Shown: positions 4,324 to 34,204 of the stretch, piece by piece
How positions within the stretch are numbered: position 1 is the stretch's first letter
Layout: every line of letters starts with the position of its first letter
NCBI GenBank assembly: GCA_001938485.1
Contig: MQRK01214937.1
Span: 1-60,096 of the forward strand
Source: Girardia tigrina
Lineage: Eukaryota
DNA length: 60,096 bases
Reading direction: 5' to 3'
Translations under genes and position numbers: made by a program
Notes under the pieces: model-generated
The model's input: the letters and a program-made list of their open reading frames with translations, nothing else
Database searches by the model: none
What the model was told of the DNA's origin: nothing

Positions 4324-5761
4324 TTAGGTTGGTCGAAAAATAATGGCGGTTTTTGAGCTTTATACTTTGTTTATCTACTTTGATATGTATATAAGTTTAA
4401 ATGCATTAGTGTTAGATATTATTTGAAATCTTATGNNNNNNNNNNNNNNNNNNNNNNNNNNNNNNNNNNNNNNNNNNNNNNNNNNNNNNNNNNNNNNNGT
4501 GCTAAATTAATAATGGAAAAAATTAAAATTCGAGCAATTTTCTTGTACGAATTTAAACTGGGTCGTAAAGCAGCAGAAACGGGTCGCAATATCAATAAAG
4601 CGTTTGGCAAGGGAACAACTTCTGAGCGCACAGTGCAACGATGGTTCCGAAAATTTTCTGATGGAGATGAAAACCTTGAAGATGAAGACGGTCGTGGTCG
4701 TGCAGTTGCTGTGAACAACGACAATTTGAGGACAATGGTGGAAACAGATCCCCGTACAACAATCAGAGAACTTGCAGATGGGTTGGGCATTAGTCAATCA
4801 ACAGTCCTGGATCATTTAAAACAACTTGAAAAAATCAAGAAACTTGATAAATGGGTTCCACATGATTTGAATGAAAATCAAAAGAACCGACGCTATGAAA
4901 TTTGTTCTGCCAATCANNNNNNNNNNNNNNNNNNNNNNNNNNNNNNNNNNNNNNNNNNNNNNNNNNNNNNNNNNNNNNNNNNNNNNNNNNNNNNNNNNNN
5001 NNNNNNNNNNNNNNNNNNNNNNNNNNNNNNNNNNNNNNNNNNNNNNNNNNNNNNNNNNNNNNNNNNNNNNNNNNNNNNNNNNNNNNNNNNNNNNNNNNNN
5101 NNNNNNNNNNNNNNNNNNNNNNNNNNNNNNNNNNNNNNNNNNNNNNNNNNNNNNNNNNNNNNNNNNNNNNNNNNNNNNNNNNNNNNNNNNNNNNNNNNNN
5201 NNNNNNNNNNNNNNNNNNNNNNNNNNNNNNNNNNNNNNNNNNNNNNNNNNNNNNNNNNNNNNNNNNNNNNNNNNNNNNNNNNNNNNNNNNNNNNNNNNNN
5301 NNNNNNNNNNNNNNNNNNNNNNNNNNGCATAAAAAATTGAAAACCCTTTGTCCGGGATTGGTCAATCGAAAAAGTCCCATCCTTCTTCATGATAACGCTA
5401 GACCTCATATTTCAAAAGTGACTATTCAAAAGCTTAATGAGTTGGTCTATGAAACCCTGCTTCATCCACCATATTCACCAGACCTCTCGCCAACAGACTT
5501 CTACTTTTTCAGGCATTTGTACAACTTCCTGCGTGAAAAAATTTTCAAAAACCAAAATGATGCTCAAAATGCCTTCCAAGAATTTGTCGCTTCGAGAACC
5601 GATGCATTTTATGCTGATGGAATAAAACAACTTGTTTCTCGTTGGCAAAAATGTATTGATGCCAACGGTTCATACTTTGATTAATAAACTTTTGTTTCTG
5701 TGAATTTGCACGTGTTTGAAGTTTGTGTCCCAAAACCGCCATTATTTTTCGACCAACTCAA
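4324..5761 (+). mobile_element. Mariner element (cecropia/Hsmar1-like), interrupted by assembly gaps
   Basis: TIRs TTAGGTTGGTCGAAAAATAATGGCGGTTTT / AAAACCGCCATTATTTTTCGACCAACTCAA with TA flanks. Confidence 0.93.
4513..5684 (+). CDS. Mariner transposase (middle hidden by N gap; integrity unknown)
   Basis: MEKIKIRAIFLYEFKLGRKAAET...WVPHDL, then after the gap LLHDNARPH, HPPYSPDLSPTDF and RWQKCIDANGSYFD*. Confidence 0.85.
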
Positions 5762-6057: not shown

Positions 6058-6856
6058 CGAGTATAAGGCAAGAGAGTCTCGACACGGAAGCACGTGTATC
6101 TCTATCGATCTGTGTTTTTATAATTTTATTTATTTCAATGAGTCATTTTTCTATGTTTTGTGCAATTTCCGGAGCGAAGAAGTTTCATTTTAGTGAAAAC
6201 GAGTTGTGAAAAATAAAGTTGTACAATTTTTTTTAATGAGTGACTTTGTAAATATATTTATTATTTGATTTTGTATTCCGACGCGGAGAAATTCGTTTTC
6301 GGATGTCGTGTATAAATGTTCGGTTTTTAGCAGTTGTACATTCCCATTTTATTATGACTGTTCGATTCCAAAATATTAATGCAACTACTATAAATAAATA
6401 CGCATATTCGTTTGTATGACCTTTTATTAGTGAGTTTTGATATTTATATAATTTTAATAAATATATTTATTGTTTTATTTGTATTCAATTATTTGGGCAT
6501 TAACCCAATCTCAATTGTTAGTTTGCGTTGGGATTTGGATATTAATTGACTGGCAATACCGCGGGGAAGAGAGCCGACTTGTAGTTCATTGTTTCATTAT
6601 TTGTGGGAACTGCTTGATGATTCTGTTTAGTTCTTTTGCTCATTTTCACAACCAATGGATAACATTGGACATTGGTTTCCAACCATTCATTCGGCTATAA
6701 AAAGACTCGGGAAATTTGAATGCATTTTGAATTTATGTCGGTACGGATTATCTTAGACATGTGCTGCTTTTTCTTTTCTACGCAAACTAAATTATTTTTA
6801 TAAATTTTGTAAACATTTTGTTTTCTAAAAACAAAAAACGCCATTTGTTAAATTTA

Positions 6857-6911
6857 TTTTTTACGACAATTAATTTCGACGGTATAACCGTCATCGTCAG
6901 GTCTCAAGAAA
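6857..6911 (-). ncRNA. Minimal type I hammerhead ribozyme in Penelope pLTR (minus copy)
   Basis: Exact reverse complement of the motif at 7982-8036. Confidence 0.8.
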
Positions 6912-7981
6912 GAAATGAATTTTAAATCTGCTTATATAGGCAAGCAGTGATTATGTCATCTAAACACGCTTAATATGGTTTTCGAGAGACCCGTTTGCAC
7001 ATTAATCTTAGGATCTAAAGATCTGATGTATAGTGCTTCACAGGCCACCCTCTACCAATAGTTTTTAAAACGAGAACACAGAATTTTAAAATCATTTATG
7101 TTTATGTTTTCATTCAACTTGCAACCCTTTCTGCTTTCTGCAATATTATTCCCACCTACATTCCGACCATGTTCTTGGATTCTTTTACAAAGATGACGGG
7201 ACGTCTCTCTAATGTATGTGACATTACACCCATTACATGTAAATTTATATACGAGATCCGAACATAATCCAAATGGGGTTGGAGATTTATTACAAAACAC
7301 ATTTTATATGTTTGTGATATTATTTTTTAATTAAAGGCATTATTTACGCATTTTAAAATTGAACGTTTAAATTGAACAAATCCCTCTGAATATGGAATGC
7401 TTAAAACATATTTTAAAGTTGTTGAGTCTTCTTTATCATTTATAATCGGTTTATTAATTAATTTATCAATTGTTTCTTTGGTCAATTTCTCAACAATTGA
7501 TTTTGAGTAACCATTTTTATTCAATAGTTTTGTTAATTAATTAATGCTATCACAACTTTTTGTATAAGTTGATGATAATGACCAAGATCGAAAAATTAGT
7601 CCTCTAATCATATTATATTTGTATCGAGATTCACAAAAACTGTTTGGTGTTGTATATAACCCAGTATCAGTTTTCTTTCTGTGAATCTCAGTCTCATAAA
7701 TATCTCTTTTCCTTTTAATCAGTAAATCTAAGAAAGAACACAGAAAGGGTTGTAAGTTGAATGAAAACATAAACATAAATGATTTTAAAATTCTGTGTTC
7801 TCGTTTTAAAAACTATTGGGAGAGGATGGCCTGTGAAGCACTTTATATCAGATCTTTAGATCCTAAGATTAATGTACAAACGGGTCTCTCGAAAACCATA
7901 TTAAACGTATTTAGATGACATAATAATCCATTGATGACATAATCGCTGTTTGCCTGTATAAGCAGATTTAAAATTCATTTC

Positions 7982-8036
7982 TTTCTTGAGACCTGACGAT
8001 GACGGTTATACCGTCGAAATTAATTGTCGTAAAAAA
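7982..8036 (+). ncRNA. Minimal type I hammerhead ribozyme in Penelope pLTR (plus copy)
   Basis: GAC-CUGACGA-U-GACGG(UUAUA)CCGUC-GAAA-UUAA-UU-GUC. It has the core CUGANGA/GAAA, a 5-bp stem II, a palindromic AUUAAU helix III and stem I GAC/GUC extended by U-rich/A-rich pairing. Confidence 0.82.
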
Positions 8037-8367
8037 TAAATTTAACAAATGGCGTGTTTTTGTTTTTAAACATAATTTGCCATTATTTTTTAATTTTGTT
8101 TTCTGATTACATATTTTTTATTTACTATATTAGATGGCGTTGATGTAGAATGATCGCCATGAAAACACATGAGAAACACCAATTACTTGAACAATAAGGG
8201 CTCAAAGAGTCTGTCATAACTAGTCATGATTAGACATCAAAGAAATAGGGCTTCATAAAAGAGATTCCAATATTTTCAATTAGTAAACGATTCGAAAGCA
8301 ATTTTTCATCAAATTCCATATTCTTTTGCATTTTCATTTTCTTCCTTTAGCTACCATTTATCATATA

Positions 8368-9115
8368 TTAGGGTGAACCAAAAGTCTTTTCGTATTTCTA
8401 CGTCTTTTTGTTCAATTGTTTCTTCTTATCAAATAAAGATATTTTATATGCATGTGTTATATGTTTTTAATGCTCTTGAACTGCTCTATCACAATATATA
8501 ATAAAACTTCTAATTAGTCGTAAATATAATTTTTATGGTCTTTTAGATAAATCATGGAAAATTTTGAAATTCATGTTCTTTTACGCCATTACTGGAAACA
8601 GGGATTAAACCCAACTGAAGCAACAAAGAAGATATGCGAAGTTGAAGGCGATAATGTGGTCTCAAATCGTACTGCATAAAATTGGTTCAAAGGTTCAACG
8701 AACGCGACATTGACCTCGGAGATAATGCACGTTCAGGCCGACCTATCACCGTAGATTCCGGAGAAATTCGTGAAACTGTCGAGACAAATCCGTCAATAAG
8801 TACTCACAGATTGTCGGCCGAACTCGATATTCCTCAAACATCCATTGTACGACATCTTCACGCTCTTGGCAAGATCAATAGACGATGTCGACAAGTGCCT
8901 CATGAATTGACACAAATTCAAGCCGAAAAGCGTTTCGAAACTTGTCAAAAATTGCTTGAAAATCCGCGCGATGTCCGTTTCATCCGTCGAATTGTAACTT
9001 GCGATGAAAAGTGGGTTTACTTCAGTAATCCAGGCCAAGAAAATCAATGATTGGACCCCGGAAAAATAGCGAAACCGGTAGCGAAACGAGATCGTTTCTC
9101 AAGGAATTTCGAAAG
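8368..9115 (+). mobile_element. 3'-truncated mariner element (left TIR plus N-terminal half of a transposase pseudogene starting at 8554)
   Basis: TA-TTAGGGTGAACCAAAAG terminus. Translation MENFEIHVLLRHYWKQG...RSGRP...VPHELT...RIVTCDEKWVYF with stops. No right TIR seen. Confidence 0.85.
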
Positions 9116-9460
9116 CCATTATAGCTGGGCGAATAACATCAGCAGTTGGTGATTAAGATGCAGGAATATTTTCATTAAATGGGGTGTAGTGGTCCTACCA
9201 ATTACAGTGATATTTACTAAAAAATGATAATCTCAATGTCAAAGGGCAAGAATGCTATGAAAGGTCAAAAGATTCCAACAAAATATCGGCCGAAACCTCA
9301 CAAAACCGTTGTTAATAAAAGCAAAGTCAAATAACTTCATTCAAATATTAATAAAAGTAATGGCGAAGCAATACATAAGAAAAAATCAAATATTAATAAA
9401 CAAATCAATTATTTGAACATTTATTTACATACTTATATTATTATTATTATTATATTAATA

Positions 9461-9750
9461 TGTCGTGGCCATCCTTTGGTGTCGACATTTCTGGAAACTC
9501 TGGGCCCCCAGAGGTTTATAAGGGTTCAACCATAACCCCACGTGTGACATTTGTCTGTGTATTTTCTTCTGGATGGCCGGACACGTCTCCGTCACCCATT
9601 ATCTACAAGTAGTGAAGGGTTTCGAGCGCCTTCAGGTTCTGGAGGCCAGGACGGGCGAATAACCTCCAGCCGGCTAGGTATCGATCGGGGATGATGAAGC
9701 ATACATTAGATTTCCACTTGTTCCACATAATTCACGAGTCACGACGTCTC
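9461..9750 (+). mobile_element. LTR-like fragment, family D (3' boundary uncertain)
   Basis: Starts TGTCGTG. Motif CTCTGGGCCCCCA lies ~37 nt in and is shared with 36102 (+) and 17440 (-). Confidence 0.4.
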
Positions 9751-10296
9751 ATATTCCGACATTGGTCTATCTATAATTGCATCAATCATTTATTCGGTTG
9801 TCTAGTCTCTCTCTAATTTCATGTTTCTATTATCATCGAAAACCCCACCAACAACAATTGTTATCACACTCTTTGAACATTAATGTACATCGTGTAAAAT
9901 TTGTTATTTAAGAAACCTCATTCTAATAATTTATTCAAATTTATTTTTCTATAAAGTGTCTTTTCACTCAATCTAAACTCCATTATTTTCAAAGTTTGAT
10001 TCTAAAGATAATTTATTAGTAATTTATTTCATTCGACATTTATTTATTAAATTTTTTCCAAGGATAATTTATTTTAACCGAATGTATTTGTATACAAAAT
10101 CAAACAAGTTTGCCGACAACATTTGAGTTGCCATCATTGGTCGCCCCTTTTAATGCGGCCTTTCTCAAAAACATGGAGAGGGTAACCAAATCGAATCCCT
10201 TGGTGGAAGAAGTGATAATCCGAAATTTTATCTCACCTCATGTGGTTCAAGTTTGTTTTTCCAAGTCGGGAACAGTGGACACGGTATCATCTAGGC

Positions 10297-10340
10297 CAGC
10301 GGTCGGTAACCTGCGGCTCCGGAGCCACATGTGGCTGCAG
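10297..10340 (+). mobile_element. hAT (Charlie/Buster-type) left terminus
   Basis: CAGCGGTCGGTAACCTGCGGCTCCGGAGCCACATGTGGCT preceded by ATCTAGGC, which resembles the Charlie nTCTAGAn target. Confidence 0.6.
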
Positions 10341-10581
10341 ATGTATAAATTTACAGATCCACATAAAATTTTACAGCGGACGTAAATTTATACGCTCAAC
10401 ATAAAATAATTTTTGTTCTACACAAAAAATATAATTAGTTTTCCATATTATTTAGAAACATATTTTTGCATAGTTCAATATGTGAGGAATATTTTGAATG
10501 ATGTGCTGATATTGTGCATGCAGAATGTTAATTTGGATTGTGCCTCTCCTACACAGATGGATGATTGATATTTTCTTTGAC

Positions 10582-11310
10582 ATGGCGACTTCACACCACG
10601 TGACTCCGAACATCAAAGGTCCAGAAACATTCGATGGATCCGAGCACAAGTTAGAAGAATTCCTGATAAGTTTTAACAGGTATTACAAGATTATGGGATT
10701 ATCAGAGGAGAGAAAAATCCTACTGGTAACACCCTACCTGACTCCAGATGCGATTCTGAGATACGAGAAGGCCCCAGGGAGTACTTGCAAAGAGAAAATG
10801 CGAGCAGCATTTTCAAAAGATAAATCTATTTTGGATTTGATGAAAGATCTCATTGAGTTAAGAGTAGGTTGCACTGACCCGTCACTTGCGTTCCGCAAAG
10901 CAGATGAGATAATCGAAAAATTAGTAGAAAAAAAGTTGGGTAAGAAAGAACTATCAAACTTGGTCTATGCTAATATGATTGATGATGATAACATCGATCA
11001 AGAGATAGCGATTCGAGGTGTAACAAAGGTAGAGGAAATCGAAAACATACAAATGAGGATGTATAAATACGGGAAAAAGAAAAGAAATTCACCGATTGCA
11101 GCATATAACACAAGAAAAGAAAACGATTGGAAAACGGTGGAGAATAAAAGAAGAACACCAAAACTACGGAACGACGAGGTAAAGAGAGACGGTAAGAGTC
11201 GAAACTATAAAGTCAGAAAAATAATTTGTTGATCATGCCATGAGGAAAGTCATGTTAGAAGAGAATGTCCGAACGTTAAGTGTAGTCACTGTCAAAGAAA
11301 AGAACATCAA
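10582..11310 (+). pseudogene. Gypsy-type gag with degenerate tandem zinc knuckles
   Basis: PETFDGSEHKLEEFL...YLTPDA, then C*SCHEESHVRREC and CSHCQRKEH after the stop at 11230. Confidence 0.8.
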
Positions 11311-11464
11311 AACACGAATCTTGGCTTTAGACGAAGAATCTAAAGAGTTCAAATGGCAGAAAGATAATGACGAAATAAATCAGATCAGAAGATATTAGAA
11401 TGGGAAGAACAAAGAAATGGATACTGAAAGACAATATTGTGACAACAATAGATAATATTTTGGA

Positions 11465-11812
11465 TTTAAGTAGTATAATTTTTTTCAAACTTTAATTCCA
11501 GAACAATAGTTTTTAATTGTTTGAATATTTTTTTCAGAGATGTTTACAGTTTCGTATGTGTATCTCACGGTTTCAAACAATTATAAATCTTAAATATTTT
11601 TTCACCATTTGGCTGGGGTTTCTTTTGCACCCCCACTTAATTTAAGTAGTATAATTTTCTTCAAACTTTAATTCCAGAACAATAGTTTTTAATTGTTTGA
11701 ATAATTTTTTCAGAGATGTTTACAGTTTCGTATGTGTATCTCACGGTTTCAAACAATTATAAATTTTACATATTTTTTCACCATTTGGCTGGGGTTTCTT
11801 TTGCACCCCCAC
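11465..11812. repeat. Tandem duplication, 2 x ~176 bp, inside the Gypsy relic
   Basis: Near-identical units at 11465-11636 and 11641-11812, each ending ggctggggtttcttttgcacccccac. Confidence 0.9.
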
Positions 11813-11879
11813 ATTGTGTCCATTTTACATTAGTTTCTGCCATTTTGTTTCTGTAAATATTGGATTCCGAGAACCACAA

Positions 11880-12030
11880 AGACAGAATTCGTGGAAGACG
11901 CTCACAAGATTCTATGCCATACTGGTAGTAAAAAGGTTTATAACTATTTGAAAGATGATTTTGATATGGTTAATATGAGAGAGATAATTAAGGAAATTGT
12001 AAAATGTTGCATAAACTGTCAAAAAAGAAA
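11880..12030 (+). pseudogene. Gypsy integrase HHCC zinc-finger fragment
   Basis: EDAHKILCHTGSKKVYNYLKDDF...IKEIVKCCINCQKR. Confidence 0.8.
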
Positions 12031-12290
12031 TCAAAAAAATCAACGCGATTCCAACCCCAAATGCGATGGCTCCAATTGAATTTGCGTTCTGCTGCATCAA
12101 TGAAAATATTCCACCTGAACTTGCTGATGAGATTCTAATTTTAGTTATGAAATTTTTAAATTGCGCTTCAATATCGTAAATGTTCTTCATAAAAAAATTC
12201 ATTCGCCAGAGCAATAGAGCACCGATAACCGCAAGCACATTTCGAGAATCAGTAAAAATAAAACGACGTAAAGAAAAAGATTCAGTCCAT
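12030..12290 (-). pseudogene. Host membrane-protein fragment, possibly tetraspanin-like
   Basis: Two hydrophobic segments, VLAVIGALLLW and IGAIAFGVGIALIFLISF, flank a ~40-aa loop. It abuts the integrase fragment. Confidence 0.35.
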
Positions 12291-12768
12291 TTTAAATTTT
12301 TATTTCAAATAATATTCATATCGAGCTAATTATTCGTTAAAACAAATTCGTTTTTTTATAATAATAATTTATACACCAAAATCAACAATTTTACTAAATC
12401 AACGATAAAACCTTTTAAAGAAATATAAATTTTGTTCTGTAAGCGAAACGACACAATTAAATTTGTTTTTCGTTTAAATTGAAATAAAATAGTGTCAATT
12501 GAAATAAATTTCGTTCTTTTGAATTATAAATAGTAAATAAAGTTAATTATTAAAATCTGTTCAATATTTGTTCTTTGTCCTTTCTTTGATATTAAATTCA
12601 AGATTACTTCGATCCACAAAAACAGAATAGGAAACGGCATTCATATACAACGAAATATACAAAAAAAAAATAACACAAATATAACCAAAACAAATACAAA
12701 CACAATTACAAGGTTTCCAAACTCTCCTGTACAACAAACAATAAAAAACAATAATAAAAAAAATTTAG

Positions 12769-13266
12769 CTTTAAAATTGTCATTAATCGGTCGACAATCG
12801 ATAGCATCAAATCGATTCAATTGGGTCAACTCGAAAAACAAATCGATATTCGTTCGAGAATTTCGTGAATAAACCGAGAAAACGTCGCCCGATTGGAAAT
12901 CGATTGAGTGATTGGAAAAGGTAATTAATCGAGTGTCTTGGAAATGAGTGGATGACGTCATGAGGAGATTGGATTTGAGAGAGAATTCCGTGTAACCCGA
13001 AGGACACTTGATGGGATTAGGTGTGTTATTGGGACAAGAAAAATCTTGCATCACTTCAATAATCGTTCGTTTTTGACGATAAAAATACGAATACAAATCA
13101 TCGATATTCGCGGCATCAGACAACTCAATCAAACGTTCTTTCTCCAAATCATTATCAGAAAGACACGCAAATTTCTCGAAAAACGAATTTCTCGGAACGG
13201 AATTCAAATCGAATCCACACAAAATAACATTCAACAAATCAACACTTGACGTTAATAATTTCGGCA
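12769..13266 (-). pseudogene. NDOR1: NADPH-dependent diflavin oxidoreductase FAD-domain fragment with its two halves in swapped order
   Basis: DLNSVPRNSFFEKFACLSDNDLEKERLIEL...YSYFYRQKRTIIEVMQDF and SNLLMTSSTHFQDTRLITF...FQSGDVFSVYSRN match the NDOR1/Tah18 motifs VPRRSFF...RPRRTILEVLCDF and HFQDVRLIEF...GDV. Confidence 0.85.
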
Positions 13267-14074
13267 CTAAAAGTATTCGATTTGATAATTATTATCAATA
13301 AATAAATAAACGGCGATCTTTGACCCGAAACCTTGACCACACGAGCGAAATTGCAGTAATTGAAAATCGATTATGGTGCTTATTGGTACTAGTGATAGTA
13401 GTAGTAATCGTCATGATGGCAGCGATAAAGACGCACTCGATCACCACTCTCACACTAGAGACTCGCCGGGAATTCGTCACACGAAGCGATAACCCGCGGC
13501 CGCATCGAGACACAATTAAACTGTGTAATTTATTTGTTTATTCTGGCACAAATAAAAGATAATAATAATAAATATCGTAATGATTTTGATTAAAATTTGT
13601 ATAGGATAAATTAAAATAAATATGTTTAAAAAATTGAAATTTTATCATTGTAGTTAGCTTAAATTAAAATTAAAAATTACACAAATAACAAAATTTTCTG
13701 TAATCTAAAATCTATTAACATTTATAAAATATAAGTTCAAAAAAAAATTTTTCAATGCATTATTAAAAAGAATTCCACACAAAACGACACAACAAATGAT
13801 TCAACAGTAAATTCCCAATTTGTTTTACTGCATCAAATGTCATTTAGTATTTACACCGTTATATATTATCTAGAAGTATAGAAATCGTTCCTTGTCTCTT
13901 CTCCTTTTTTTTTATTCATTTTAAAGTAATTGCATTCATTTAATATTCACAAATATTAATTATATATTATTTTTTTATATAAATATTAATTAAAATTATA
14001 AAATTAAATTATATATAAATATAAATGAAATAAAAGTAATTAATTAAATAATTAATTTATTATATAAACATATA

Positions 14075-14938
14075 ATTAATTCTTTTAAATATTTTAAAAT
14101 TTATATATTGAAATGATAATTATTTAATATTAACATTACTATCTATATGGACACAACTCAATGATCCCTCGGACTCGGAGACGGATTGTGATGCACCCCC
14201 ATGTCGGCCTCTGCCTTCTTCTCTATTAAGTAATAATCAACGAACTACTAGATATAAGAGTTTTATTAGAATTATTAAATATTACAAGCAGGCATAACAA
14301 TAAAATATAACATGTAAATCGAATAAAACAATATACCGTAAATGACTACCTTGGTTAAATTGATTGAATAAAATTCTTCTCAAATCAAATAAAATTATTT
14401 TAATTGAATGGGGTAAATAAAAATTCTTCGTAGACCGGAATTCTCCTCGAATTCAGTTGTACAAGATTTTTAAAAATATCTCGAATTCAGTCGTACAAGA
14501 TTTTTAAAAATGTCGTGGTCTGAAATCGAGGGTCGCTGCTCTACCTTATATACCCAACGGATGTACTATCAGAATACACACAATCCGTCCGGTATCCAGC
14601 GAAGACGGTCACGCAAGATGTGCGTGATCAACAGGAACACGAGGTAAATTTTTTGTTTATTGTTCATATATTTATTAAGTTCACGTAGGACACTCGTGGT
14701 TAACTCGTGCCAATATCGTCTGGATTCGAATTCCAGATTTCAAATGTCAATGGTAAGTACTATTAATTAAAATTTTAACTTTTGTTCTTTTATTTTAGAA
14801 GGGCTCCTCATCCTGTTCGGAGTTCGGCGTGCATTTACAATTGACGGGGGATAGTCGAGTTTGACTATCCCCCACACTCAATAACTTTGGCGCGCGTCGG
14901 GCAACGAATGGGCGAAGGAGTCATCCTGGGCCGTAACA
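14075..14938. repeat. Dispersed LTR-like repeat, family B (second copy ~39065-39890)
   Basis: Colinear similarity with 39065-39890 ends sharply at GGGCCGTAACA in both copies. It contains a TATA-like box and a strong hairpin. Confidence 0.8.
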
Positions 14939-16902
14939 AAGAAGAAATAGTTAATAAAAAATAAACCAAAATCGATAAAGTTACCTCCAAAATCCACCCG
15001 ATGGCCAAAATTGTGAAGTAAAACCTCCCCGCGTAGGTCTCGGCGACCGAAAACCATTTTCCTCCATGATCTTCGGACGAAAAGTTATAACCCTGCAAAG
15101 ATATGTAAATTAGTAAACAAAAAAACTGAGATTAATTAAAAAATTACCGTGACTCAGGCCGCGATCTAAAAATAAACTCGTACGACCTGAATTGACCGCA
15201 TGATGACGACCTGAATGATGACGTGGATCGGCACACAAGCTCCAAAATCTATAATAAAAATAAAATTTTAAAAATTTATTTGAAGACACACCTACTTGGT
15301 TATCCAACCAGCAGCAGCAAAAAACCCAGAAGAGTAGCTGGCGTTGACTGATTGGTTAAATCTGGAACACAGGGTGTCCTTCCAACCCTATAAGTACAAT
15401 GAACATTTTGTCATCAAACGCACAATTAATTACACAATTAACTCTAAGCATTTAATTTTACGCAGTGATTTAACCCAGAATTTACGCAAAATTTGAAGCA
15501 CCAAGCCGAGCGCCAATTCGAAGAATAATAATTACGAAGCGAAGAAATTAGAATCTTACGAAGAAAAGAGAATCTATACTAGAGACCGTACCACCGAGGA
15601 GAATAAAAGGGAGACTCGACACAATAACCGACGAGAAGAATTAATCGACCGAAGCATTCTGACCGATTTCGAACCGCTATCAAAAATGTAATTAGAGTGA
15701 AGTTATTGTTTATTTTATATGTATTGAAAATATGAATATATGTATTGAAATAATTATTTTTTTTATTTATTTATTTGTTTATTTCGTTAATTAATAAGTA
15801 ATTAGAAAAAGCACGAATTACCTCTTAGGTTTATAATTAGTAGAGTCGTCGTTCCGCCGTTGTCCCTCGTTAATCATGTCGCGAGTTGAATTCCCGCTAA
15901 GTGCGTCGTTAGAGGACGCAAGGGGATCAAACAATCCTCATCATCGTCGGCGTAAGATCGATATCAGGATCCGAATTTTTCAGCGGTCGCCGCATCGACT
16001 CGTTCCTTGACGAGGTGGGGCCGCCAGTGCGTTCCTATCGGACGCGATAATCCGAAAAAATGCCGATTTGCGTCGAGAGAACGAGAAAAATCATCGCAAT
16101 TTGTTTTCTCGGCGTGACAAGCATATTTAATTGATATACTTAAACAAAATAAATTTTTATATGCTCTAAAGAATACATAAAGTTAATAATTATTTTAAGA
16201 ATTGAGTTAAAGTGAAACCGATTGTAGTAGATGAAGTCAATTTTATAAGTGATTTTTAATGATTTACAAATTTAACGATTTATAAACGAATTTTAATGAT
16301 TTATGAATTTAATGATTTGCGATTTGGCGTGTAAATGAATTCTAATAATCTTCGTAATATTTTGAATTTGCTTTAATCTGACGATTTAGTTAAAGTGAGA
16401 GTAGAATTTTTAAGTAAATTTTTAAGGAATAAACGAAATTTGAACTTATCTATTTAGCTTCGACTTATTATTGCCTGATCAAGTTAATTATTCAACGAGA
16501 TTTTATTCCGTAAACATCTAATAGAATTATGAAAATTAGTTAAGAACCGTTTCAGGGATTAGTGTGTTCAGGATTTATTGAATATAAAATAATGAATTTC
16601 GTAAGAAAATTCCTCACCGTAGTACTGGTAATAACATTTCTACTTAATAACAGTGATAAATTCGATCTTTTGAATTGGTCGAATATTGTTTTGATAATTA
16701 TAGGAGTTGAGTTAATTTGAACCTTCTTTAATATAGTAACATTGAATTCTAGTAATTTCGATGTCGATTTGATAACGACCACTATAATGCTGGTTGGCAG
16801 ATAAGTCCGGAATCAATAATCTGGCTTAATCCGATAACTCGTAGCGCTTATGGAGAAAACTATCGATAAGGAGATGCTGGTCGATATATTGAGAGATAGT
16901 AA

Positions 16903-17440
16903 TGTTAACGACACACAGTGACATTCTGTCAGATAAGACCCTCGGGAGTGCAACAATACTATAAATTACCAAGTGACATAACAATACCGCAAGTCTAATC
17001 CTACACGACAGAACACATCGCCTTAAGTTTCTAAAACAGAGATACATAACAGTGCAGCAAGTTTACAGGGAGACATAACATTGCCTCAAGTTTCCGAAAC
17101 ATAGACACACAACAGTGTAATGAGTTTTATATTATACAACAGTACCGTAAGTCTCATGCCACACAGAGATGGAGTATAAGTCATCCCCGAGCAACACTCC
17201 GCTAGGTGGGGGCCAATAGCCCATCCCATCTTTATTGGAACCCGATGGCCCTTCAGACTCGGCACTGCCAGGCAGATGTCGAGCGAGAAGAGGCGTCCGA
17301 TCCATAAATAAAGAGAATAGCGATATAGGTATTAGAATGAATTGTAAAAAATGTGAATCAAAATCGGGTTGTGGCTGACCCTTAATAGTCACTGGGGGCT
17401 CTGAGCACTTAAAACTGTTATGAACAAATGAGTCGTGACA
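16903..17440 (-). mobile_element. Solo-LTR-like element, family D, abutting the truncated 5' end of LTR A
   Basis: TGT at 16903 and CGTGACA at 17434-17440. The minus strand begins TGTCACG...CTCAGAGCCCCCA. It has an internal degenerate ~30-bp repeat array. Confidence 0.5.
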
Positions 17441-19277
17441 TTATTAAAGGAAGAAATTAATTAATAGACGCCCACGTATTCCTTGTTTAATTAATTGCAC
17501 TTGTTAATTATCCTTTTTCTGGGACACCTAAAGACTTTGATTTAACAAGGGTCCCTATTAAATTTCTGTAATGTTATACTTGCAGTAACATTTTTGGACA
17601 TGCAACGTATTATTTTTCATGAGAATGTCTTGTTTTTTGTTTGAGGAGTTTTGATTCTTGTATAAATATGTGCTCGATTTTTGTAAAAAAATAATAAAAA
17701 TAAACGTATTCCACATTTTGGACTCCATTTTTATGGTAAAATCTTTGTTTTATGGAGGATAGAGAGTTGAGGTTTTGATGGCCGCCGATCCGTCGACAGG
17801 TAACGGCAGGTGCTTTTATAGCCTGCCGCGACTGTTGACGATCTGGCAGCTGAAGATGAGTAATAACTCCCCAACACATTCGATAATATCACCATGAAGA
17901 ACTCAACTCGCTAACCTCTATCAACCTTTTTTCCTCTTTGTTTTTCTTTTGTGTTGATGGTTAAAGGAAATGTTCATCGTCATTGTCGCTCTTCTCTCTT
18001 AGGAATGCAAATTGCTCTCTTAGGTGAGCAAAAACGAGTCGCAGATTCTAGCCCTGTCTAAAGAAAATCAACGGCTCCTTCAGGAAATCCAGGTATTGAA
18101 GCAATCAAATGACCAAAAGGAGGCCCAATTATCGAGACTCAATGCGGAGTTTGAGGACTACAGAAGACAGTCAGTCCCAATGTCGGTACATTGACCCATG
18201 GTCAAAAATATGTTCAATCTCAACAAAGAAATAAACAACTTCAAATGAACGTTGATGAAGAGAGAACCCAACAAAATATTATGAGCTATCAACGTAAAAT
18301 GGTCCAACGAGTTTCTCAAGAGCACCCGGAGCTAATTGTTGAGGCGGCTAGGAACATAGAAACTAAGATAGTCGATGATCCAAGAAACAAACCTACAACC
18401 TCCAAATCAAGAGTTTACGCCTCAATAATAAGAGAATATATGGCATCCTCTTCTCCGAGCATCATCAGCCGAACATAGAAACGGCGAGAACAGAGGAAAC
18501 GAAAAGCCTAACTGGACCAACAAGCGCGAATTGAAGTGGAGGTTATCAAAACCCATACGCGTTTGGATACAGTGGTTGGAGAGCAAGAAATCCTGGACGA
18601 AGGTGGTTTCGATTTTGAGAGGATTGACCGATCGCCACAGCCCAGCATACATAATAAAATCGCCGTACCCCTTTTAAAGATTGGTATTGAAGAAGTAATC
18701 AGGAGGCAAAAATGGTTAGATTGGGAAGCCAAGTACAAAACATGGAAGGAAGGTCGAGACCGCCTATTGTACTGATCAATCACAACTGGTCAAAACGAAG
18801 AATTTGTGGTTTCGACCGACTCGGTTGATTAATGACGATGAACAGATTCTTCCTTTTTTATTTTTCTTTTGATTGATTAACAAATAGCAACATTTAGAAT
18901 TTGATTGCGTTTTTTCTCTTGTGGTCTATCTATAAAAATATAAAAGATAAAAATAAGTAGTCTAATCTAAATAACAAATAAATAATCAATTAAATTAGGT
19001 AATGATTCATAAATGAATGCAGCATATGATATTAAAGAACATAAAGACACAGAATTCCGATCGATAAAAAACAAACAAAATTTTCAATCATTAGGAACCC
19101 GGTAGATACTTGATTTTGTTCACTGGTGAAAGGATGGGAGCAGATGAACTTAATTGGGTATGGCATAGACCATATACCAACATCAGGAAGAGGTACCTGA
19201 TGGGGTTTATGCCAAAATTAATGTTGGAATTGAACCCATAATTAATTTATTTAAAATAAAATTTATTGAACCCAGTA
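17441..19277 (+). mobile_element. Family A LTR (lacking the first ~70-80 bp), 5' LTR position
   Basis: High identity to 34469-35121 + 40595-41831. It ends GAACCCAGTA (other copies CCCAACA/CCCAGCA) and is followed by a PBS. Confidence 0.85.
18005..18832 (+). pseudogene. LTR-encoded ~270-aa coiled-coil protein with Arg-rich motif (unknown family), disrupted copy
   Basis: ORFs 18191-18478 and 18536-18775 join into one frame when compared with 40595-41384. A splice acceptor (ctcttag) precedes it. Confidence 0.75.
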
Positions 19278-19286
19278 TATTATTTA

Positions 19287-19304
19287 TGGGGGCTCAGCTG
19301 GGAT
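19287..19304 (+). promoter_or_regulatory. Primer-binding site, tRNA-Pro-like (copy 1)
   Basis: TGGGGGCTCAGCTGGGAT matches 15/18 of the canonical tRNA-Pro PBS TGGGGGCTCGTCCGGGAT, after a 9-nt spacer from the LTR end. Confidence 0.75.
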
Positions 19305-19584
19305 TTGTTTAAACAATGAATTTTTGTTTTTTTTTTGAAGTAAAAGAATTACATGATAACATTTTTTTTGAGAAATTGCCGAAATTTTTATTTAGTCTAA
19401 TGAAAATTTCAGAAGGTTTTTTAATGATGGCATATGTATTGGAATTTATTCCACGTCAACGGACAATATTTGTGTGGGTTTTATTGTCTTTGGTCAGTGG
19501 AAAAATGGCAGTTAATTATTACAAATGGTACGTCGAAAACACCATCAAAATAAATTGAGAAAAGAAAAACCGAAAGATAAATTT

Positions 19585-19925
19585 GAACCTAAATAACAAA
19601 TAAATAATCAATTAAATTAGGTAAGGACTCATAAATGAATGCAATATATGATATTTAAGAAGAAAAATATACAGAATTCTGATAAAAAAAACAAACAAAA
19701 TTTTCAATCATTAGGAACCCCGTAGATACTTGATTTTGTTCACTGGTGAAAGGATGGGACCAGATGAACTTAATTGGGTATGGCATAGACCATATACCAA
19801 CATTAGGAAGAGGTACCTGATGGGATTTATGTTGAAATAATATGTTGAGATTGAACCCACAGTTACTTTAATTAAAATAAAATTTATTGAATCCAACATA
19901 TCATTTATGGGGGCTCAACTGGGAT
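19585..19925 (+). repeat. Family A LTR 3' fragment plus PBS (copy 2; PBS 19908-19925)
   Basis: Repeat of 18964-19304, ending ATCCAACA then TGGGGGCTCAACTGGGAT. Confidence 0.85.
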
Positions 19926-20221
19926 TTAATATATTTATAATTTCTAATTATATTATTTCTTTTTATTTAAAGACAAAGTTGGCTGCACTGATTTTGCTTG
20001 CAAATTTTTTATTTGAAAAGGAGTACTTAACCATGGTGGGATAACATTTTACATGACAAGTACGAAAATCAATAGGACAGTTTAATTGTTTTTTATATTT
20101 ATTGTACATGCGACCATTTAAAAACGATAAACGAGTAGTGTATTTTAAATTATGGGAAATATTTACAACTGATAAAATAAAATTCTGTAAAGATAGCGTT
20201 TAGGTAAAATTATAAATGTCC

Positions 20222-20472
20222 ATGGCTCATCATGTCCATTAGTTCATTCAAATCTGTATGCTTCCCTCTCTTCGGAGATATTCCAGTAAACTGCCCTTGC
20301 TCAACAGTTACGTTACAATATAGATGGGCTCATCCCTGCAAATGATATAAAGATTCACGAGATTTGCATGATTTAGTTTTTCTTTATTCGAGCATCTTTT
20401 AGGAATTCTTTCTTGGCCGTGGTATCAGGTTTAAGGTTTTCATAGCTACATCAATTGTTTTTTTCCACAGAC
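20222..20472 (-). pseudogene. Src/Frk-family tyrosine kinase exon (subdomains II-V), decayed
   Basis: After acceptor cgtttag the sequence reads [81 protein letters not shown], with three frameshifts and one stop. It is absent from the ORF track. Confidence 0.85.
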
Positions 20473-21389
20473 CTAAACGATTAAATACTAACACATATAA
20501 CAATAATTATGATTAGTAAAATAAAATGTAAATGGTAATCTTTAATGATATAGCATGACAATAGAACTTTCATATTATGAAACAAACAATAAAACTATCT
20601 ATAATTTCAAAAAAAATATTTGAAAGTACAAATAAATGTATAAAAACTGCATTTATTTATTTATTAATTATCTAAAAAGAAATTGTAAAATTAATTGATT
20701 TCTTACCTTTATCAGAACTTTCAAAACGTGGAGTGCCAATTCATTCATAACATATGTGAGGAGAAAGAGAAAAATCCCCATAGATATAATCCAAATAAAC
20801 GTCCCGCGTTTAAGTCGAAAGAAACTAACTGGAAAAATATAATAAATATAGAGAAAATATGATAAATTTAAATACCGTTGATTAATTACGGTTATTATAA
20901 AAATAATATAACAAATAAAACGAAATATAATACTCTATATTTTATAAATAAAATGTTACCTAAAGGAAAAGCGATACCCTTATGAAAAAGGAGAACAAAA
21001 ATAATTTTTTTTGATTTATTAAATTTCATTTATTTGAATTAACACATTAAACTATAATGAAAAAATATGTATATAATAAATAAACAAATAAATAAATTAT
21101 ACATATAATATGTTTAAAATTATACATAAAATATACATAAAATAAATTATAAAACACTAAATTGATGTAATCACATATTTTACTAAAACAATAAAGAACT
21201 CAAATCTTTCTTAATAAGATTTTCCGTAAAAGGTAAAGAATAAAATCATATTTTAAACAATTTTGAATACATGTCTTCCAAGAAAGTATAAGTTTTGAAA
21301 ATATATGTGAAATAATGAACAGAACATTTGAGAAAGGTTGCAACTTCCAGTTAAATAAACAGAAGTTTAATTATAGTTTAACAATTAAA

Positions 21390-21628
21390 TCGCCGTGAGT
21401 CGAGATTTTAAAGCTGAACTCGTGATGGCGGATACCTTTTAGAGAAAAAAAATCACCACGATATGAGGTAAAACTACTGAAAATCGTCATGGTGGATACA
21501 TTTAAGATATTAAAATTACCACGGAGAGCGGAAATTGAACCTGCGCGCCCGTAGATTTTTAGGATTGTTGGCCGGTCCAGATTTTGAGGATTTAGGAGGG
21601 AACAATAGGCCGTAACCGTTATGGTAGA
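21390..21628 (+). repeat. Structured leader block; diverged second copy at ~23670-23846
   Basis: aatcgtcatggtggataca...gcggaaattgaacctgcgcgccc...cgtaaccgttatggtaga occurs at both sites. Confidence 0.85.
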
Positions 21629-22341
21629 CATCCTGGTCGAAGGTGATTTCGATTTTAAGAGGATTGACCGATCGCCACAGCCCAGCATGGATAACACAAT
21701 TGCCGTACCCCTTTCAAAGATTGGTATTGAAGAAGTAATCAGGAGGCAAAAATGGTTAGATTGGGAAGCCAAGTACAAAACATAGAAGGAAGGTCGAGAC
21801 CGCCTTTTGTACCGATTAATCACAATTGGTCAAAACGAAGAATTTGTGGTTTCGTCCGACTCGGATGATTAATGACGATGAACAGATTCTTCCTGTTTAT
21901 TTTTATTTTGATTGATTAACAAATAACAATATTTAGAATTTGATTGCGTTTTTTCTCTTGTGGTCTATCTATAAAAATATAAAAGATAAAAATAAGTAGT
22001 CTAACCTAAATAACAAATAAATAATCAATTAAATTAGGTAAGGACTCATAAATGAATGTAATATATGATATTAAAGAACATAAAGATACAGAATTCCGAT
22101 CGATAAAAAACAAACAAAATTTTCAATCATTAGGAACCCGGTAGATACTTGATTTTGTTCACTGGTGAAAGGATGGGGCCAGTTGAACTTAATTTGGTAT
22201 GGCATAAACCATATACCAACATCAGGAAGAGGTACCTGATGGGGTTTATGCCAAAAGTAATATGTTGGAATTGAACCCATAATTAATTTAATTAAAATAA
22301 AATTTATTGAACCCAACATATTATTTATGGGGGCTCAGCTG
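21629..22341 (+). repeat. Family A LTR 3' portion (to 22318) plus PBS (copy 3, from 22328)
   Basis: Repeat of ~18590-19300, ending ACCCAACA then TGGGGGCTCAGCTG. Confidence 0.88.
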
Positions 22342-24738
22342 CGTTTAAAAAAAAGAACATTAATTTGTGTTATCTAACATTTCAAATTAATTATATCAAA
22401 AATATATATAAATGTATATTTCCCTTTTTTACTCCTTTACTCAATGAATTTCCTTAGAGCTTTTTGCTTTTGAAATCAAATTATAGATCCTAGATTGGAT
22501 TTAAATTATTCGAACATAATACAATAAATGTTTTCGATAAACAAAATTATAGCTGGAATTATTATTGTTCTGAGAACCATTAAAAATGACACTGAATCAG
22601 ATAATGATCCGTTATTACATAGAATTGAACACGTCCCGAAATAATTTATCTTCAATTATGATTTGCAATAGTATAAACGGGAATAATCTTTGTTCCATAA
22701 AACCAGCATTATTATGGTACGACAATTAGAAACAAATTCTTTACCTCTTGAAAATCTCAGCCTTTAAGACAAATCATATTTTTATTTAGTAAATACAAAT
22801 ATTCTGTTTGTTCGAGTTGCAATGTGATTTTTGTCGCTTTCATCAACCGATCCTTCGAAACATACACCAGAAAAGAGATCATTGCCACCGAATAATGGTA
22901 AGGAAGGATCGTTTCCACCGATAAATTATTGGGAAATATTATGAAGAAAATGAAATGAAGTATAAAGAAATAACATCTACGACAAGTCATTTGAGATTTG
23001 GTATTTTCTGTTCCATGTGAGATAATAAATAAATAAAGAGAAATCAATTAATCGTCGTTCTAGATTGGTACATTTTTATACACTAGAGTCGGATTTCGTT
23101 TACATTTTCCGATCGTGGATACTTGGCATTTAATGTTACACCAAGGTGTCGATTATCCAAAAAAATAAACAGACGAAAAACGATGATGATAATCATGAAA
23201 GACAGTAATAATGAAAATAATAGCTAATTTTAATTATTTATATTTCAAATTAAATCTCCCTTTGTAAAATAAAAAAAATGCGTAAAATAGGAATCATATT
23301 AACGCAATTTAATAATTAGTAATATAAAATGATAATATTTATCACTTATTAAAGGATACTATTACTTAGGGTAAAGTAAAAGGTATCATTAAATGGAATG
23401 ATCTAACATTTATTTCAAATAAAGGATGAGAGAAATAAAACCGAATTGGATCAAGTGTTTGAAAATAGAGAATAAGAAATACATATCTGTTTAAATATGA
23501 TAATTGTTGAAAAGCGGTAACAAAATTAGTTTAAAAATAATAATAATAAAAATAAAAAAATAATCTCCCATAAGTCTATTAAAGACAAAGACTTTACTAC
23601 CAAGAACGTCACGAAAACCACTTATGACCTCAAACTAAACGAAATAAAATTAAGATTATATATGATAAAATTACCACGATTGGATGTTGTAAAGCGAGAA
23701 TCGTCATGGTGGATACATTGGAATTAACGAAATTACCACGGAGTGCGGAAATTGAACCTGCGCGCCCTTAGATTTTTATGATTGTTGGCCGTTCCAGATT
23801 TTGAGAATTTAGGAGGCAACAATAGGTCGTAACCGTTATGGTAGATATATACTTTTGAAAACGAAAATGATATGATTAACCATCGATGATCCTACTAAGA
23901 GCAACTAAGTCGGACTTAGTGGTGAAGTAGCGGCGGATACTTGGTAAGGCCGGTTAGCGAAAATATCAACGAACACCACAGACAGATCATAATAATAATT
24001 CTTCCCCAGTAGGTGGACTCTGAAGACGGAGAAAAATAACGACTGATCAGATCTGTACTTCTAATAAAACCGAGAAGAATAAACAACCTCTTAAAATGAA
24101 CACAAAGGAATACAACAACACAATGATAAAGAAACACTTAGATAATAAATATTTCTTTTCCAGTAGGTGGATTCCGAAGAAGTGAAGAGAAAGAGTTATT
24201 TATGAAAAGCCACAATAAGAGCTTTTAACTGACAAATAAATAGCTTCAATTTACCAAAAGGTGTTTTAAAATAAAAAATGAATATAAAGTGATATCAGTC
24301 CTAATAAACAATTAACGAAAAAGAAAAGTACATAATTAGTCCATAAGAGAGAGAACCTGGATAAAGTGAATTATAGATATAATGTGTTTAACCCTCTTCC
24401 TTCGTTCCTTGCTTTATTTTTTGTTGTTTGTTTTACTTCCTTTTCTTTCTTTTTCTTTCAGTTTTAAAAGTTGGAAAGGAAGACGCGAATACAATAAGAT
24501 TTTTGTGGTTTTAGAAAAAGAAAAGGAAAATAACACAATCTCAAGAGAGCAAGTTGAATTAAAGAAGATAACTACCATAAATAACAAACGTCAATTTCTT
24601 TTCAAAAGCAAGATTGATCTTCGAAGTCGATTTGCTAAAACCCAAGCGAACCAAAAAATTACCCAATATTACGAGAAGAGACCGAATATAATTCTAGTGA
24701 ATTCAAGGAAATCATTGGTGCCAATGCATGTCATAGCA

Positions 24739-25150
24739 AGACGCATGCAGACGCATGTGGATGGTCTCCAATAGCTCGTTTTCAACGATTACCATTATAT
24801 CTTGAAGGAATTGCTCTTACTCTGTATGTAAACGAGTTGGAGAAAAGAACCATTTCTGATTTTGCAGTAGCAGTAACCTTTCTTAAAGGACAATTTTTAA
24901 CGTCAATGACACCAACACAAAGATATAATAAATTTATAAGAAGACGACAATTTCCCGAGGAATCGATTTTTGAATATGCAACTGAACTAAAGAGACTGGC
25001 TCAAAATGTCAATGTATCGGATAAACCTGAAGATGCAATAAAGGATGAGCAAATACTTGCTATATTTATGGGATGAATAAAAGATCGACGAACATCTAAT
25101 CATCTATATCTACAAAAACCTACATCCTTAAATACGGCCATATCTATGGA
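24739..25150 (+). pseudogene. Gypsy-type gag (capsid) fragment
   Basis: ADACGWSPIARFQRLPLYLEGIA...FLKGQF...RRRQFPEESIFEYATELKRLAQ...FMG*I...PTSLNTAI. Confidence 0.85.
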
Positions 25151-25185
25151 GTCAAGAAGATGAAGTATATAAAAAAGATAAACCA

Positions 25186-27420
25186 TTGTGGCAGATAGCA
25201 GAAATTTTACGAGATCATTGGACTGAAATGACGCAAGAAAGTGTTGATGCCACAAGGGAATTGATAATTCGAATATCGAAGGAATATCAAGTCGATCCAA
25301 GAAAACTTAAATATCATGATGGTACCACTGAATATGAATTGCATTGTAATGAGCGAATACTGACCAGAGAATTATATGAAATACTTGGAATTGATCCAAA
25401 AGGATCAGAAATACTACAATATGACAAAAGACCTATCCCAAGCAATGATAGACCAATAACCGAATATGATCTCTGGCAAAATTTGAAAAAGATTGTCCCA
25501 ATCTTGAGGAAGATGAGTCAAAATGACAACTGGAAAAATTTGCCGTATCCCGGAAACCAATATCATGACTGTATTCAATGTATAAAGATGTATAATGAGT
25601 TTATAAAGATAATAGTGGGGGAAATGAATGTTGAAGGATCACTGTCAGAGGATAATGGAGCTCGGCTGACTATTAAATTAATCATTTCAAACGTAGAATC
25701 GGCCTTTGACACAATCCCAAATGAAAGCTAAAGATATTTAATAAGTACTATCAAATTGAGGGAGAGCAACTACCAGAACTCTGTAAATTAATTTAGAAAT
25801 GCGAGGAAACAATTAAAGGAGTAGATAACCCTAGGACTTATCAATTATATGTTATCTTTCCAAATTTCAACAAGTATCATCTTAGCGAGTTACATAGTTT
25901 AAATACGAGAGAAATAATCCATGATTTAATTAACTTCTATAATATATCAGAGAAGACAGAATTTATGGTTGAGGATTATTAATTGTTTCACCTGAGAACA
26001 CCAATCCAGATGGGTAAAAACTTATTCGAAAATGGAATCTGGCCACATTGTGAGACTGAAATTTATCTTATTTCCGCACAAGAAATACTATTGCCAACGA
26101 TGGACTGGGAGTTGGAACTCTAAAAACTCAAAGTATTTGCTGCTTGCCTCAATATTGAGGATATTACCTATATAAAGAAATTTCATCAAGAACTAGGTAT
26201 TGCGGATAAAGTTTACAGCCAAATACTTGACATTTTACAAAACTTCCATCTTTTAACATTTGAATTGAGCAATATGGGAGAAATAATAAATCTTATTCAA
26301 GATTTACGGAATATAATTCCTGAAACAAAGCAACATGTAATAAATGAAATATTACAGAAATTTGCAAGGAACAAAACTTGTGAATTATTAAATCTATGGG
26401 TATATTTCCCCGATGAGACTGTCATCACAGTAGAGATATCCAGATCCACCGACAATGAAACACTCTACAAAATAATTTAAAAAATAATTGAAGAAAAAAC
26501 CAAAGACGAAGGGGAAATTGATTTCAAATTAGTGTATAATGGTACAAGAATCAAACGTAACAGTAAATTAGTTGTTAACAGTGGGCTATGGAATGGACGA
26601 AGATTATATGTATTGAATTGGAAAGATTTGGAAGAAGATTCTACCAGAAATGCTCGATTTTGTCGAGAAATGAATGAAAAATTTCAAAGGCTATATGGAA
26701 AATATGTTCAACCAGTAATAAAAAATCTTGGTGTATATAACAAAAAAGAAAACATTACAGAATGTTCAACAAAAGATTCCGAAGATATCCAGATAATATC
26801 CGAACAGTCATCAATGATAGAAATAAATACATTAGAGGAAAATAGAGATAAAAGTTTATCATCCCTCTGTATTGATGAAGACGAGAGATTAACGAAAGAA
26901 AATAACGATTTAAAACGAATTAAATTTCTCCTTTGTCATAACAAAATGAAGAAAGAGGAAATAATATCTATATTAACAGATTTAGACCCATTATTAGTGC
27001 CGTTACATGAGTTGAGGGTATTATTATACCTCTGTGAAAGATCAAAATTTATTCGAGAGTGGATACCTACTAGAATAGAGTTATTATTAGATATATGGAT
27101 TAGAAGGAAATAGAAACTGATGAAATAAAATATAAAATAAAGGTGGTAATGCTAACTAAAGAAAATAGTCAGACATTTACATTACCTATATATGCTACAA
27201 TTAATGATATTAAGCATTTATTACCATATAGAGATAATTATAACATAATAATTGATGGTAACCTTCATGAAAATGATGTTTATCTCGGTCTGACAAATTT
27301 GGATGAGGAAATCGAAAATGAAATAGAATTAGAATTACCGGAAAAACAGAAATGGTTATTAAAAGTATGGAACCCTCCACAAATGGAAGAAAATGGCACC
27401 GAAATAACTAATCAGAAATT
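25186..27420 (+). pseudogene. Accessory polyprotein region with about four ubiquitin-like (beta-grasp) domains
   Basis: Repeated ~70-80 aa units with ubiquitin-like pattern, e.g. NLWVYFPDETVITVEISRSTDNETLYKII*KII...FKLVYNGTRIKRNSKLVVNSGLWNGRRLYVL. Long reading frames are broken only by scattered stops and frameshifts. Confidence 0.55.
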
Positions 27421-27472
27421 TGAAGGAAAAAATTTTGAAGAAGTATTAAAGGCATCAAAAGGATCACCTTTG

Positions 27473-31489: not shown

Positions 31490-32029
31490 TTGTCTTATTT
31501 CCTATTTCTCCAAATGTTTTCGGATAAAGCTTTTCCGGTGATTAAAATCCTTTTCGGTTGGGTTATAGACAGAACCAACTAGATGACCTTCATCTTTATA
31601 TAATTTCGGATTATAATTGGCCTTTGGGTATTATCTGTATTCGACCGCAACGATAGCCGGTCGATCCGCAGCTTGTATAAAAAGGTTTTTGTCATCGACA
31701 GTTATGCGCCATTTTGACGATCGAGCACCGAATTGATAGACTTCTCCTTGTTGAAAACCTTTACGAGTTCAGCGGCAATATGTAGTTCAATGTCGCCATT
31801 GGACATTTCGTAACATATGTCTGAGATCATTTTGGATTGATTGTTGAAAATTAATTCAAGGTAGATCTCCATTTCGAAATCCGTTGTCCGAATATAATTA
31901 GGGAAAGCAAGATTGTCACGGAGTCACCTTTTGAATTGTCCCGTTCGAGTACTCAACATGTTGCAAAATTCCACATAGATTTTGCCGGATCTCGTAGTCG
32001 ATTTTTGAAGCATTGACTGTTTCATTGGT

Positions 32030-34200: not shown

Positions 34201-34204
34201 TATT

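Follow-up and report, generated by a model that had tools for sequence, protein, structure and literature searches.

The locus and its surroundings

The stretch of DNA analysed (the window) comprises 60,096 nt of a Girardia tigrina contig, has a GC content of about 30% and is rich in mariner and gypsy debris. On its minus strand lies a piece of an NDOR1-like FAD domain (NDOR1 or Tah18, NADPH-dependent diflavin oxidoreductase 1) in which the later part, segment B, stands before the earlier part, segment A (Table 1). The piece is embedded in a 2-kb mosaic (12038-14083), in which fragments of several repeat families share one strand, with the remnant of a gypsy integrase less than 700 nt away. 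The repeat on the other side of the mosaic is a putative LTR. Searches of the fragment at the edge of the mosaic (12038-12243) gave no convincing family match, and a reading of it as a tetraspanin found no support from Pfam or the Atlas.

Table 1. Features in and around the swapped NDOR1 piece (positions in the window; X1, X5, X6 and X10 are public runs)
Feature	Position	Strand	Basis or remark
Swapped NDOR1 FAD-domain piece (B then A)	13266-12769	minus	498 nt, multiple of three
Segment B, first in order, from the later portion of the NDOR1 FAD/connecting domain	13040..13266	minus	P0002 alignment and PF00667
Interval containing the B/A join	13007..13039	minus	11 codons without match in any homolog
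Segment A, earlier FAD-domain part with HFQDTR motif, placed second	12769..13006	minus	P0002 alignment
45-nt GT..AG flank resembling an intron, 16% GC, with the acceptor of B at its end	13267..13311	minus	sequence
42-nt CT..AG intron-like flank, 17% GC, donor-like save for its first base	12727..12768	minus	sequence
GC-richer block (45% GC), 75-codon open frame that reaches the upstream donor in phase 1	13312..13537	minus	sequence
Hydrophobic 27-codon stretch, in frame past the downstream acceptor	12641..12726	minus	sequence
6-nt deletion (12923) and exit from A (12907) in the commonest variant	12907..12928	minus	run contigs
Remnant of a Ty3/gypsy-type integrase zinc finger, at one edge of the mosaic	11834..12076	plus	PF17921, E 9.3e-12
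LTR-like repeat bounding the mosaic on its other side	14064..14949	plus	second copy 39042-39901, 72-80% identity
Fragment of another repeated, hydrophobic, membrane-protein-like sequence	12038..12243	minus, same strand as B/A	loose ends in X1, X5 and X10 (12038, 12243)

Neither proteins nor ends of Helitrons or MULEs were found near the block. Between 11800 and 16500 only stems of 5-7 bp precede CTRR, and no Rep or helicase was recognised among 146 of the 185 ORFs of at least 62 aa, nor among a set of 12 profiled ORFs. Among the 25 longest of the 140 inverted pairs between 9000 and 18000, those around the block are all AT-rich 70-82% pairs, and none qualifies as a terminal inverted repeat. There are no Rfam matches in 9000-24000 and no tRNA genes in the window.

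Both plus-strand copies of the LTR-like repeat have a TATA-like box, two GT..AG intron-like stretches of 45-46 nt and a perfect GC-rich hairpin of 11-12 bp (14846-14873 and 39798-39825), the arms of which are constant while the loop differs; the minus strand has further intron-like stretches at 15.3-15.5 kb. In one contig of run X6 (depth 38.7) position 12372 is followed after two letters by 13661, so that the whole NDOR1 block is missing; this may represent an empty-site version of the locus or a chance match of AT-rich sequence.

Elsewhere in the window a large retroelement remnant (24370-29244, plus strand) contains a Retrotrans_gag match (24639-25076) followed by three ORFs with matches to Monjiviricetes fusion glycoproteins (27104-27898, 27867-28181 and 28315-29244), with stops and frame changes. 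To a second element (30746-34230, minus strand) belong an RNase_T-type exonuclease ORF (30746-31501, E 2.1e-07) and an integrase-core match that is weak and below the cut-off (33418-34230); a short repeated peptide motif is found at 31916-32251. Decayed copies of mariner-type transposases were recognised with Pfam support at 2212-2756 and 4501-5684 and by eye at 8655-9050 and 57624-58554, two of the mariner-type copies being interrupted by assembly gaps. A 176-nt tandem duplication (11464-11812, 98% identity) lies within the gypsy remnant, repeated segments with 85-95% identity occur in both orientations (18029-19929, 21449-23848, 40589-41843), and 17436-18013 is found again inverted at 34533-35107.

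Source gene and native order of the two halves

Aligned to the diflavin reductase P0002, segment B corresponds to residues 284-361 (59% identity) and segment A, from 13006 on, to residues 206-270 (54% identity); in PF00667 segment B covers positions 101-163. P0002 (592 aa), the best intact match, has the domains Flavodoxin_1 (from residue 6), FAD_binding_1 and NAD_binding_1. The piece itself passes the Pfam threshold for FAD_binding_1 in two stretches (34.3 bits versus a cut-off of 32.3). Named matches are NDOR1 (P0004, P0009), and the structures of NOS, MTRR and POR are matched only with E values of 0.019-1.6. As judged from these similarities, the source gene is an NDOR1-type diflavin reductase.

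The first-pass annotation of this DNA had claimed that B precedes A on the minus strand, that the native order is A before B and that the piece is circularly permuted. The alignment to P0002 bears out the first point. Among 151 stored homologs both halves are found in 136, and in 134 of these A comes first; 15 homologs have B only. The two with B first (P0003, P0005) are decayed copies, which excludes that B-A is the native order in this lineage. When the halves are put back in the order A-B, 86 of 156 residues are identical to P0002 and there is no gap at the K/V seam; the outer ends of the piece are therefore neighbours in the native protein, as expected of a circular permutation on one strand. 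A mis-assembly is likewise excluded, the same join being present in P0003, P0005 and contigs of public runs. The swapped NDOR1 piece is real, neither a mis-assembly nor the native order. No further NDOR1 parts were found in the 60-kb window, which includes seven assembly gaps, and scans of JGI metagenome contigs, viral contigs and prokaryote genomes for the parent NDOR1 locus or for DNA of other copies gave none.

That a junction joins the two segments stood up, and its location at about 13040 needs refining: since the 11 codons of the join interval are unlike all homologs, the join can be placed only within 13039-13007. The residues that follow B in the window recur after B in P0003 and P0005.

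The piece is enclosed by a minus-strand frame of 215 codons without stops (13288-12641). This agrees with the annotation, which had noted that the joined frame is stop-free, but it is weak evidence, because the two halves are coding sequence of recent origin, and about one join in three would be in frame by chance. The other two frames of the piece contain 9 and 14 stops. The first full codon is at 13264; the TG at 13266-13265 completes a split codon, which is why a translation begun at 13266 shows stops.

Further copies of the join

P0003 and P0005, known as proteins, are encoded on separate JGI contigs (1951 and 1039 bp) and share the join at 86-90% identity; they are copies in their own right. 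In addition, four of the 24 listed public runs (X1, which may be RNA, X5, X6 and X10), all in the form of contigs, were compared with 11800-14800 at 80% likeness; the listed leaf-litter, biofilm and aquatic runs with small shares form no part of this evidence. One X5 contig (record 23, 12907-13069) spans the join interval; it extends 30 letters past 13039 on the B side, one below the 31-letter rule for an exact place.

Summed contig depth, which can be read as "many copies" only and not as a copy number, is far higher in the join region (12911-13213) than in the flank (12406-12607) in three of the four runs. The values are 6,200-9,600 versus 75-78 in X1, 57,000-71,000 versus 1,400-2,100 in X6, 64-430 versus 10-23 in X5 and 86-146 versus 22-38 in X10. 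The depth of zero at 13214-13314 in X1 and X5 is made uninformative by the record filter. The B/A join is a member of a multi-copy, decaying repeat family and not a one-off insertion.

The copies differ in how they continue. A 6-nt deletion at 12923 is present in all four runs, and loose ends at 12907 are found in X1 and X5. In the commonest variant the letters past 12907 translate as P0003 from residue 79 onward, and in P0003 the swapped piece continues in frame into an unrelated ORF of about 280 aa (residues 79-359). P0005 has the 6-nt deletion and continues within A, with a frameshift. For the ORF fused in P0003 neither a Pfam nor an NCBIfam family nor a solved relative was found, and among 265 candidates (197-629 aa) it matched itself only. 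A C2-like lead stayed under the Atlas threshold (clusters at 0.83-0.87), and a single-sequence fold proved unusable (pLDDT 32.6).

Decay of the copy in the window

At five of the six positions where the copy in the window differs from every other copy, the intact P0002 agrees with the others, and seven of the nine substitutions listed inside the unit (147 further rows concern the whole stretch) change the amino acid. This is the pattern expected from neutral drift. Conserved residues have been lost, and the open frame is therefore inherited rather than selected; the absence of stops is no sign of function. With about 160 of 592 residues and no FMN or NADPH domain, the copy is a decaying fragment and no working reductase.

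A functional, selected permuted reductase, for which the 215-codon frame could speak, is thus hardly credible, conserved residues being changed in this copy and the sister copy P0005 being frameshifted. The same very low probability attaches to an assembly artefact, since the join was found again in separate data.

Ends and flanks of the piece

Segment B starts in phase 1 directly after an acceptor-like ttttag (ttttag/TG, 13267/13266) and segment A finishes in phase 1 at AAAG (AAAG/ctaaat, 12769/12768), both as the first-pass annotation had it. Its proposal of an opening within an intron agrees with the AT-rich, intron-like flanks found on both sides. Among the 5060 AG sites in the window, 15 have a context like that of the upstream flank and seven a context like that of the downstream flank, by criteria chosen post hoc, once the site was known. 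An X5 contig (record 22, 12760-12910) is identical to the window, so that the C at the first donor position is not private to the assembly. The neighbouring repeat also has intron-like stretches, of 41-47 nt. Beyond the upstream flank, the GC-richer block, which has no Pfam match, may be a host exon; beyond the downstream flank, the hydrophobic stretch overlaps another repeated piece (12603-12751; X5 record 21, depth 181).

The two flanks are not mutual copies, their longest common word being 7 nt, and together they make up an inverted repeat of 5+5 nt with a 2-nt AG microhomology in its middle. The 7-nt word could mark a crossover.

These features bear on the idea that an intragenic duplication within NDOR1 created the B/A order in tandem and that a mobile element then copied the join together with bits of intron. 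Such a captured junction yields the same order and the same splice ends, and the same-strand mosaic around the block resembles gene-capturing elements. It requires, however, two capture breakpoints, one in each intron copy, the flanks should then be copies of one intron, which they are not, and the ends or proteins of a Helitron or MULE carrier were not found. We consider this origin improbable.

A direct join of A to B

In one contig of run X10 (depth 32.4) position 13266 is joined back to 12769 with a 2-letter overlap, so that A passes on into B at the very ends of the piece in the window. The letters between are marked "not known"; we read the joint as direct because its 2-letter overlap matches the microhomology of the window, and because an overlap of 0 is recorded for three other joints at which the reference has microhomology. 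Next to it, an A contig (12770-12922, depth 33.4) begins at the 6-nt deletion and differs by two substitutions and a 1-letter gap, as the frameshifted P0005 predicts. All X10 depth at 12923 has the 6-nt deletion. The depths add up to a loop: B (85.9) receives 32.4 from A and about 50.6 from outside, and the 92.1 that leaves is divided into 33.4 and about 59, the latter probably via the fusion at 12907. Hence the native seam seems to have been re-closed without an intron in decayed copies, by splicing or back-splicing if X10 is RNA, or as an intron-free tandem unit if it is DNA. The direct join is listed in X10 only and not in X1, X5 or X6, where the record filter makes its absence weak evidence.

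The loop fits an intronless circle of 498 bp derived from one long exon and inserted, sometimes with more than one turn, at the 2-bp AG microhomology in an AT-rich intron of about 85 nt or a palindromic site, the splice-like ends being a by-product of the target. The direct join stands beside a frameshifted, P0005-like A piece of nearly the same depth and, the depth at 12923 being all deleted, seems to belong to decayed copies; the balanced depths and the inverted repeat formed by the flanks point in the same direction. On the other hand, the acceptor-like upstream context and the downstream context, donor-like in 5 of 6 positions, must then have arisen by chance, and an intronless native gene predicts the same joint in X6, where none is listed. 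This origin we regard as rather unlikely.

An intron-free join of A to B in decayed copies would also result if two NDOR1 exons were back-spliced to a 498-nt circular RNA, which an LTR element reverse transcribed for at least one turn and spread. After A the sequence is T-rich rather than A-rich, and the absence of a poly(A) tail, the LTR-type neighbours and the many copies are as in the circRFWD2 pseudogenes of the mouse in the sections consulted of PMC4897178, although these features are not specific to that class. A circular RNA leaves unexplained, however, why the piece begins and ends exactly at the A/B seam, preceded by an acceptor and followed by a donor-like site. Moreover, in P0138, P0145, P0137 and P0022, genomic read-through sequences of other species and thus indirect witnesses, the similarity to NDOR1 ends about four codons before or a few after the DF at the end of B, and not at DF. 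We hold this route to be quite improbable.

Proposed origin

With a probability of about 0.5, the window contains a decaying permuted fragment of NDOR1 that arose via a small DNA circle opened in a short phase-1 intron and was later amplified as repeat cargo. The circle is suggested by the swapped order on one strand together with ends that are adjacent in the native protein, which is the signature of circle-mediated duplications as described in the accessible text of PMC7450558. The opening within an intron is favoured because both ends lie at splice-like signals of the same phase and have AT-rich flanks of 45 and 42 nt. Since these flanks differ and yet have the 7-nt word in common, they could be hybrid introns generated by one crossover.

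In this scheme about 0.55 kb of NDOR1, made up of parts of two successive exons and the short phase-1 intron between them, would have been excised or copied, and its ends closed into a circle. The closure would have created the B/A join, with the frame kept by chance. Recombination between the AT-rich intron of the circle and a target that was likewise AT-rich, probably a short intron too, would then have produced a phase 1-1 "exon" of 498 nt, flanked by an acceptor on the B side and a donor on the A side. The join was then copied, an outcome that is seen directly: it occurs many times among gypsy-type debris, and its copies have diverged through deletions, a shift of frame and fusion with an unrelated ORF. 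Where the donor still worked, splicing may finally have re-closed A onto B, either from tandem units or by back-splicing, which would give the join in X10. In the copy in the window the donor G would since have been lost, as several conserved residues have been.

Several findings count against a circle opened in an intron. X6, which is DNA-like, lists no A-B joint with intron letters, though the filter drops records and 422 loose ends lie beyond those listed. The donor requires a G-to-C change also in the X5 copies, the 5+5-nt inverted repeat at the AG fits the insertion of an intronless circle, and the A-to-B join in X10 requires an RNA step. Spliced joints of the short introns nearby are not listed in any of the four runs.

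A more far-reaching version, which we think doubtful and about as improbable as a circular RNA derived from two native exons, makes the "permuted exon" itself the active unit. Back-splicing would restore the order A-B in a 498-nt circular RNA with a stop-free round, and a retroelement would have turned circles of this kind, or concatemers of them, into DNA copies, multiplied these to a high copy number and fused them, in frame, with the 280-aa ORF. If true, this would amount to exon shuffling from a DNA circle via an RNA circle to a retrocopy, seeding a chimeric gene family.

Comparison with known systems

The copy in the window is a dead fragment, and its value lies in the record of a mechanism rather than in a gene. 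From NDOR1/Tah18 it differs in that only part of the FAD domain is present, swapped and decaying.

A literature search, mainly of openly accessible papers without their supplements, returned no permuted NDOR1 fragment and no exon-sized circle opened in an intron. Comparable are the captures of host sequence by Pack-MULEs and Helitrons and the domain capture by the planarian element Burro, as far as described in the sections available of PMC6431247: in both cases host fragments are amplified, and the mosaic has one strand. The gag plus mononegavirus-like fusion-protein element 11 kb away (24.6-29.2 kb) resembles Burro of dugesiid planarians, in keeping with a probable planarian host. Unlike in these captures, element ends were not found around the block, and the NDOR1 fragment is permuted and not collinear.

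The circRFWD2 pseudogenes of the mouse, with 33 high-confidence copies reported in PMC4897178, share with the NDOR1 piece a non-collinear join, many copies, LTR neighbours and the absence of poly(A). There, according to the same source, exon ends are joined by a known back-splice, whereas the outer ends of the NDOR1 piece resemble a retained intron. The locus would gain in significance if the permuted exon were shown to undergo back-splicing and to be the origin of a chimeric family under selection.

Duplications via circular DNA intermediates have been described for the human cSDPs, tilapia vasa, cattle KIT and a yeast gene cluster (PMC7450558, PMC7188851). The NDOR1 piece resembles them in its flipped order on the same strand, seen in the window as B-A versus A-B in nearly all homologs, in the fusion of the donor ends inside the copy and in a single opening point, to which the gap-free seam and the X10 join at the same ends correspond. 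In the cases described there, 1-2 bp of microhomology are found at the insertion end, for which the 2-nt AG and the 7-nt word are candidates here, and the duplicates sit away from the donor, as the NDOR1 piece may do as well; no other part of the gene was found in the 60 kb with their seven assembly gaps. The known duplications are, however, about 20 kb or larger, whereas the NDOR1 piece measures 0.5 kb and falls within a coding region; its ends, moreover, coincide with splice-like signals of a single phase, and it was later amplified to many copies.

Should the parent locus agree, the window would provide a clean invertebrate example of the reinsertion of an exon-sized circle. A circle opened within an intron would deliver a ready-made, frame-neutral exon, which a repeat could then spread and fuse to new frames, and the many copies let the steps be ordered on a tree. 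The mechanism as such is already known: the reinsertion of DNA circles in the germ line is well supported for tens of kb by the cited papers, which in their accessible parts contain no exon-sized case, and what sets the NDOR1 piece apart from them is its exon-sized scale and its later amplification, both of which are unusual.
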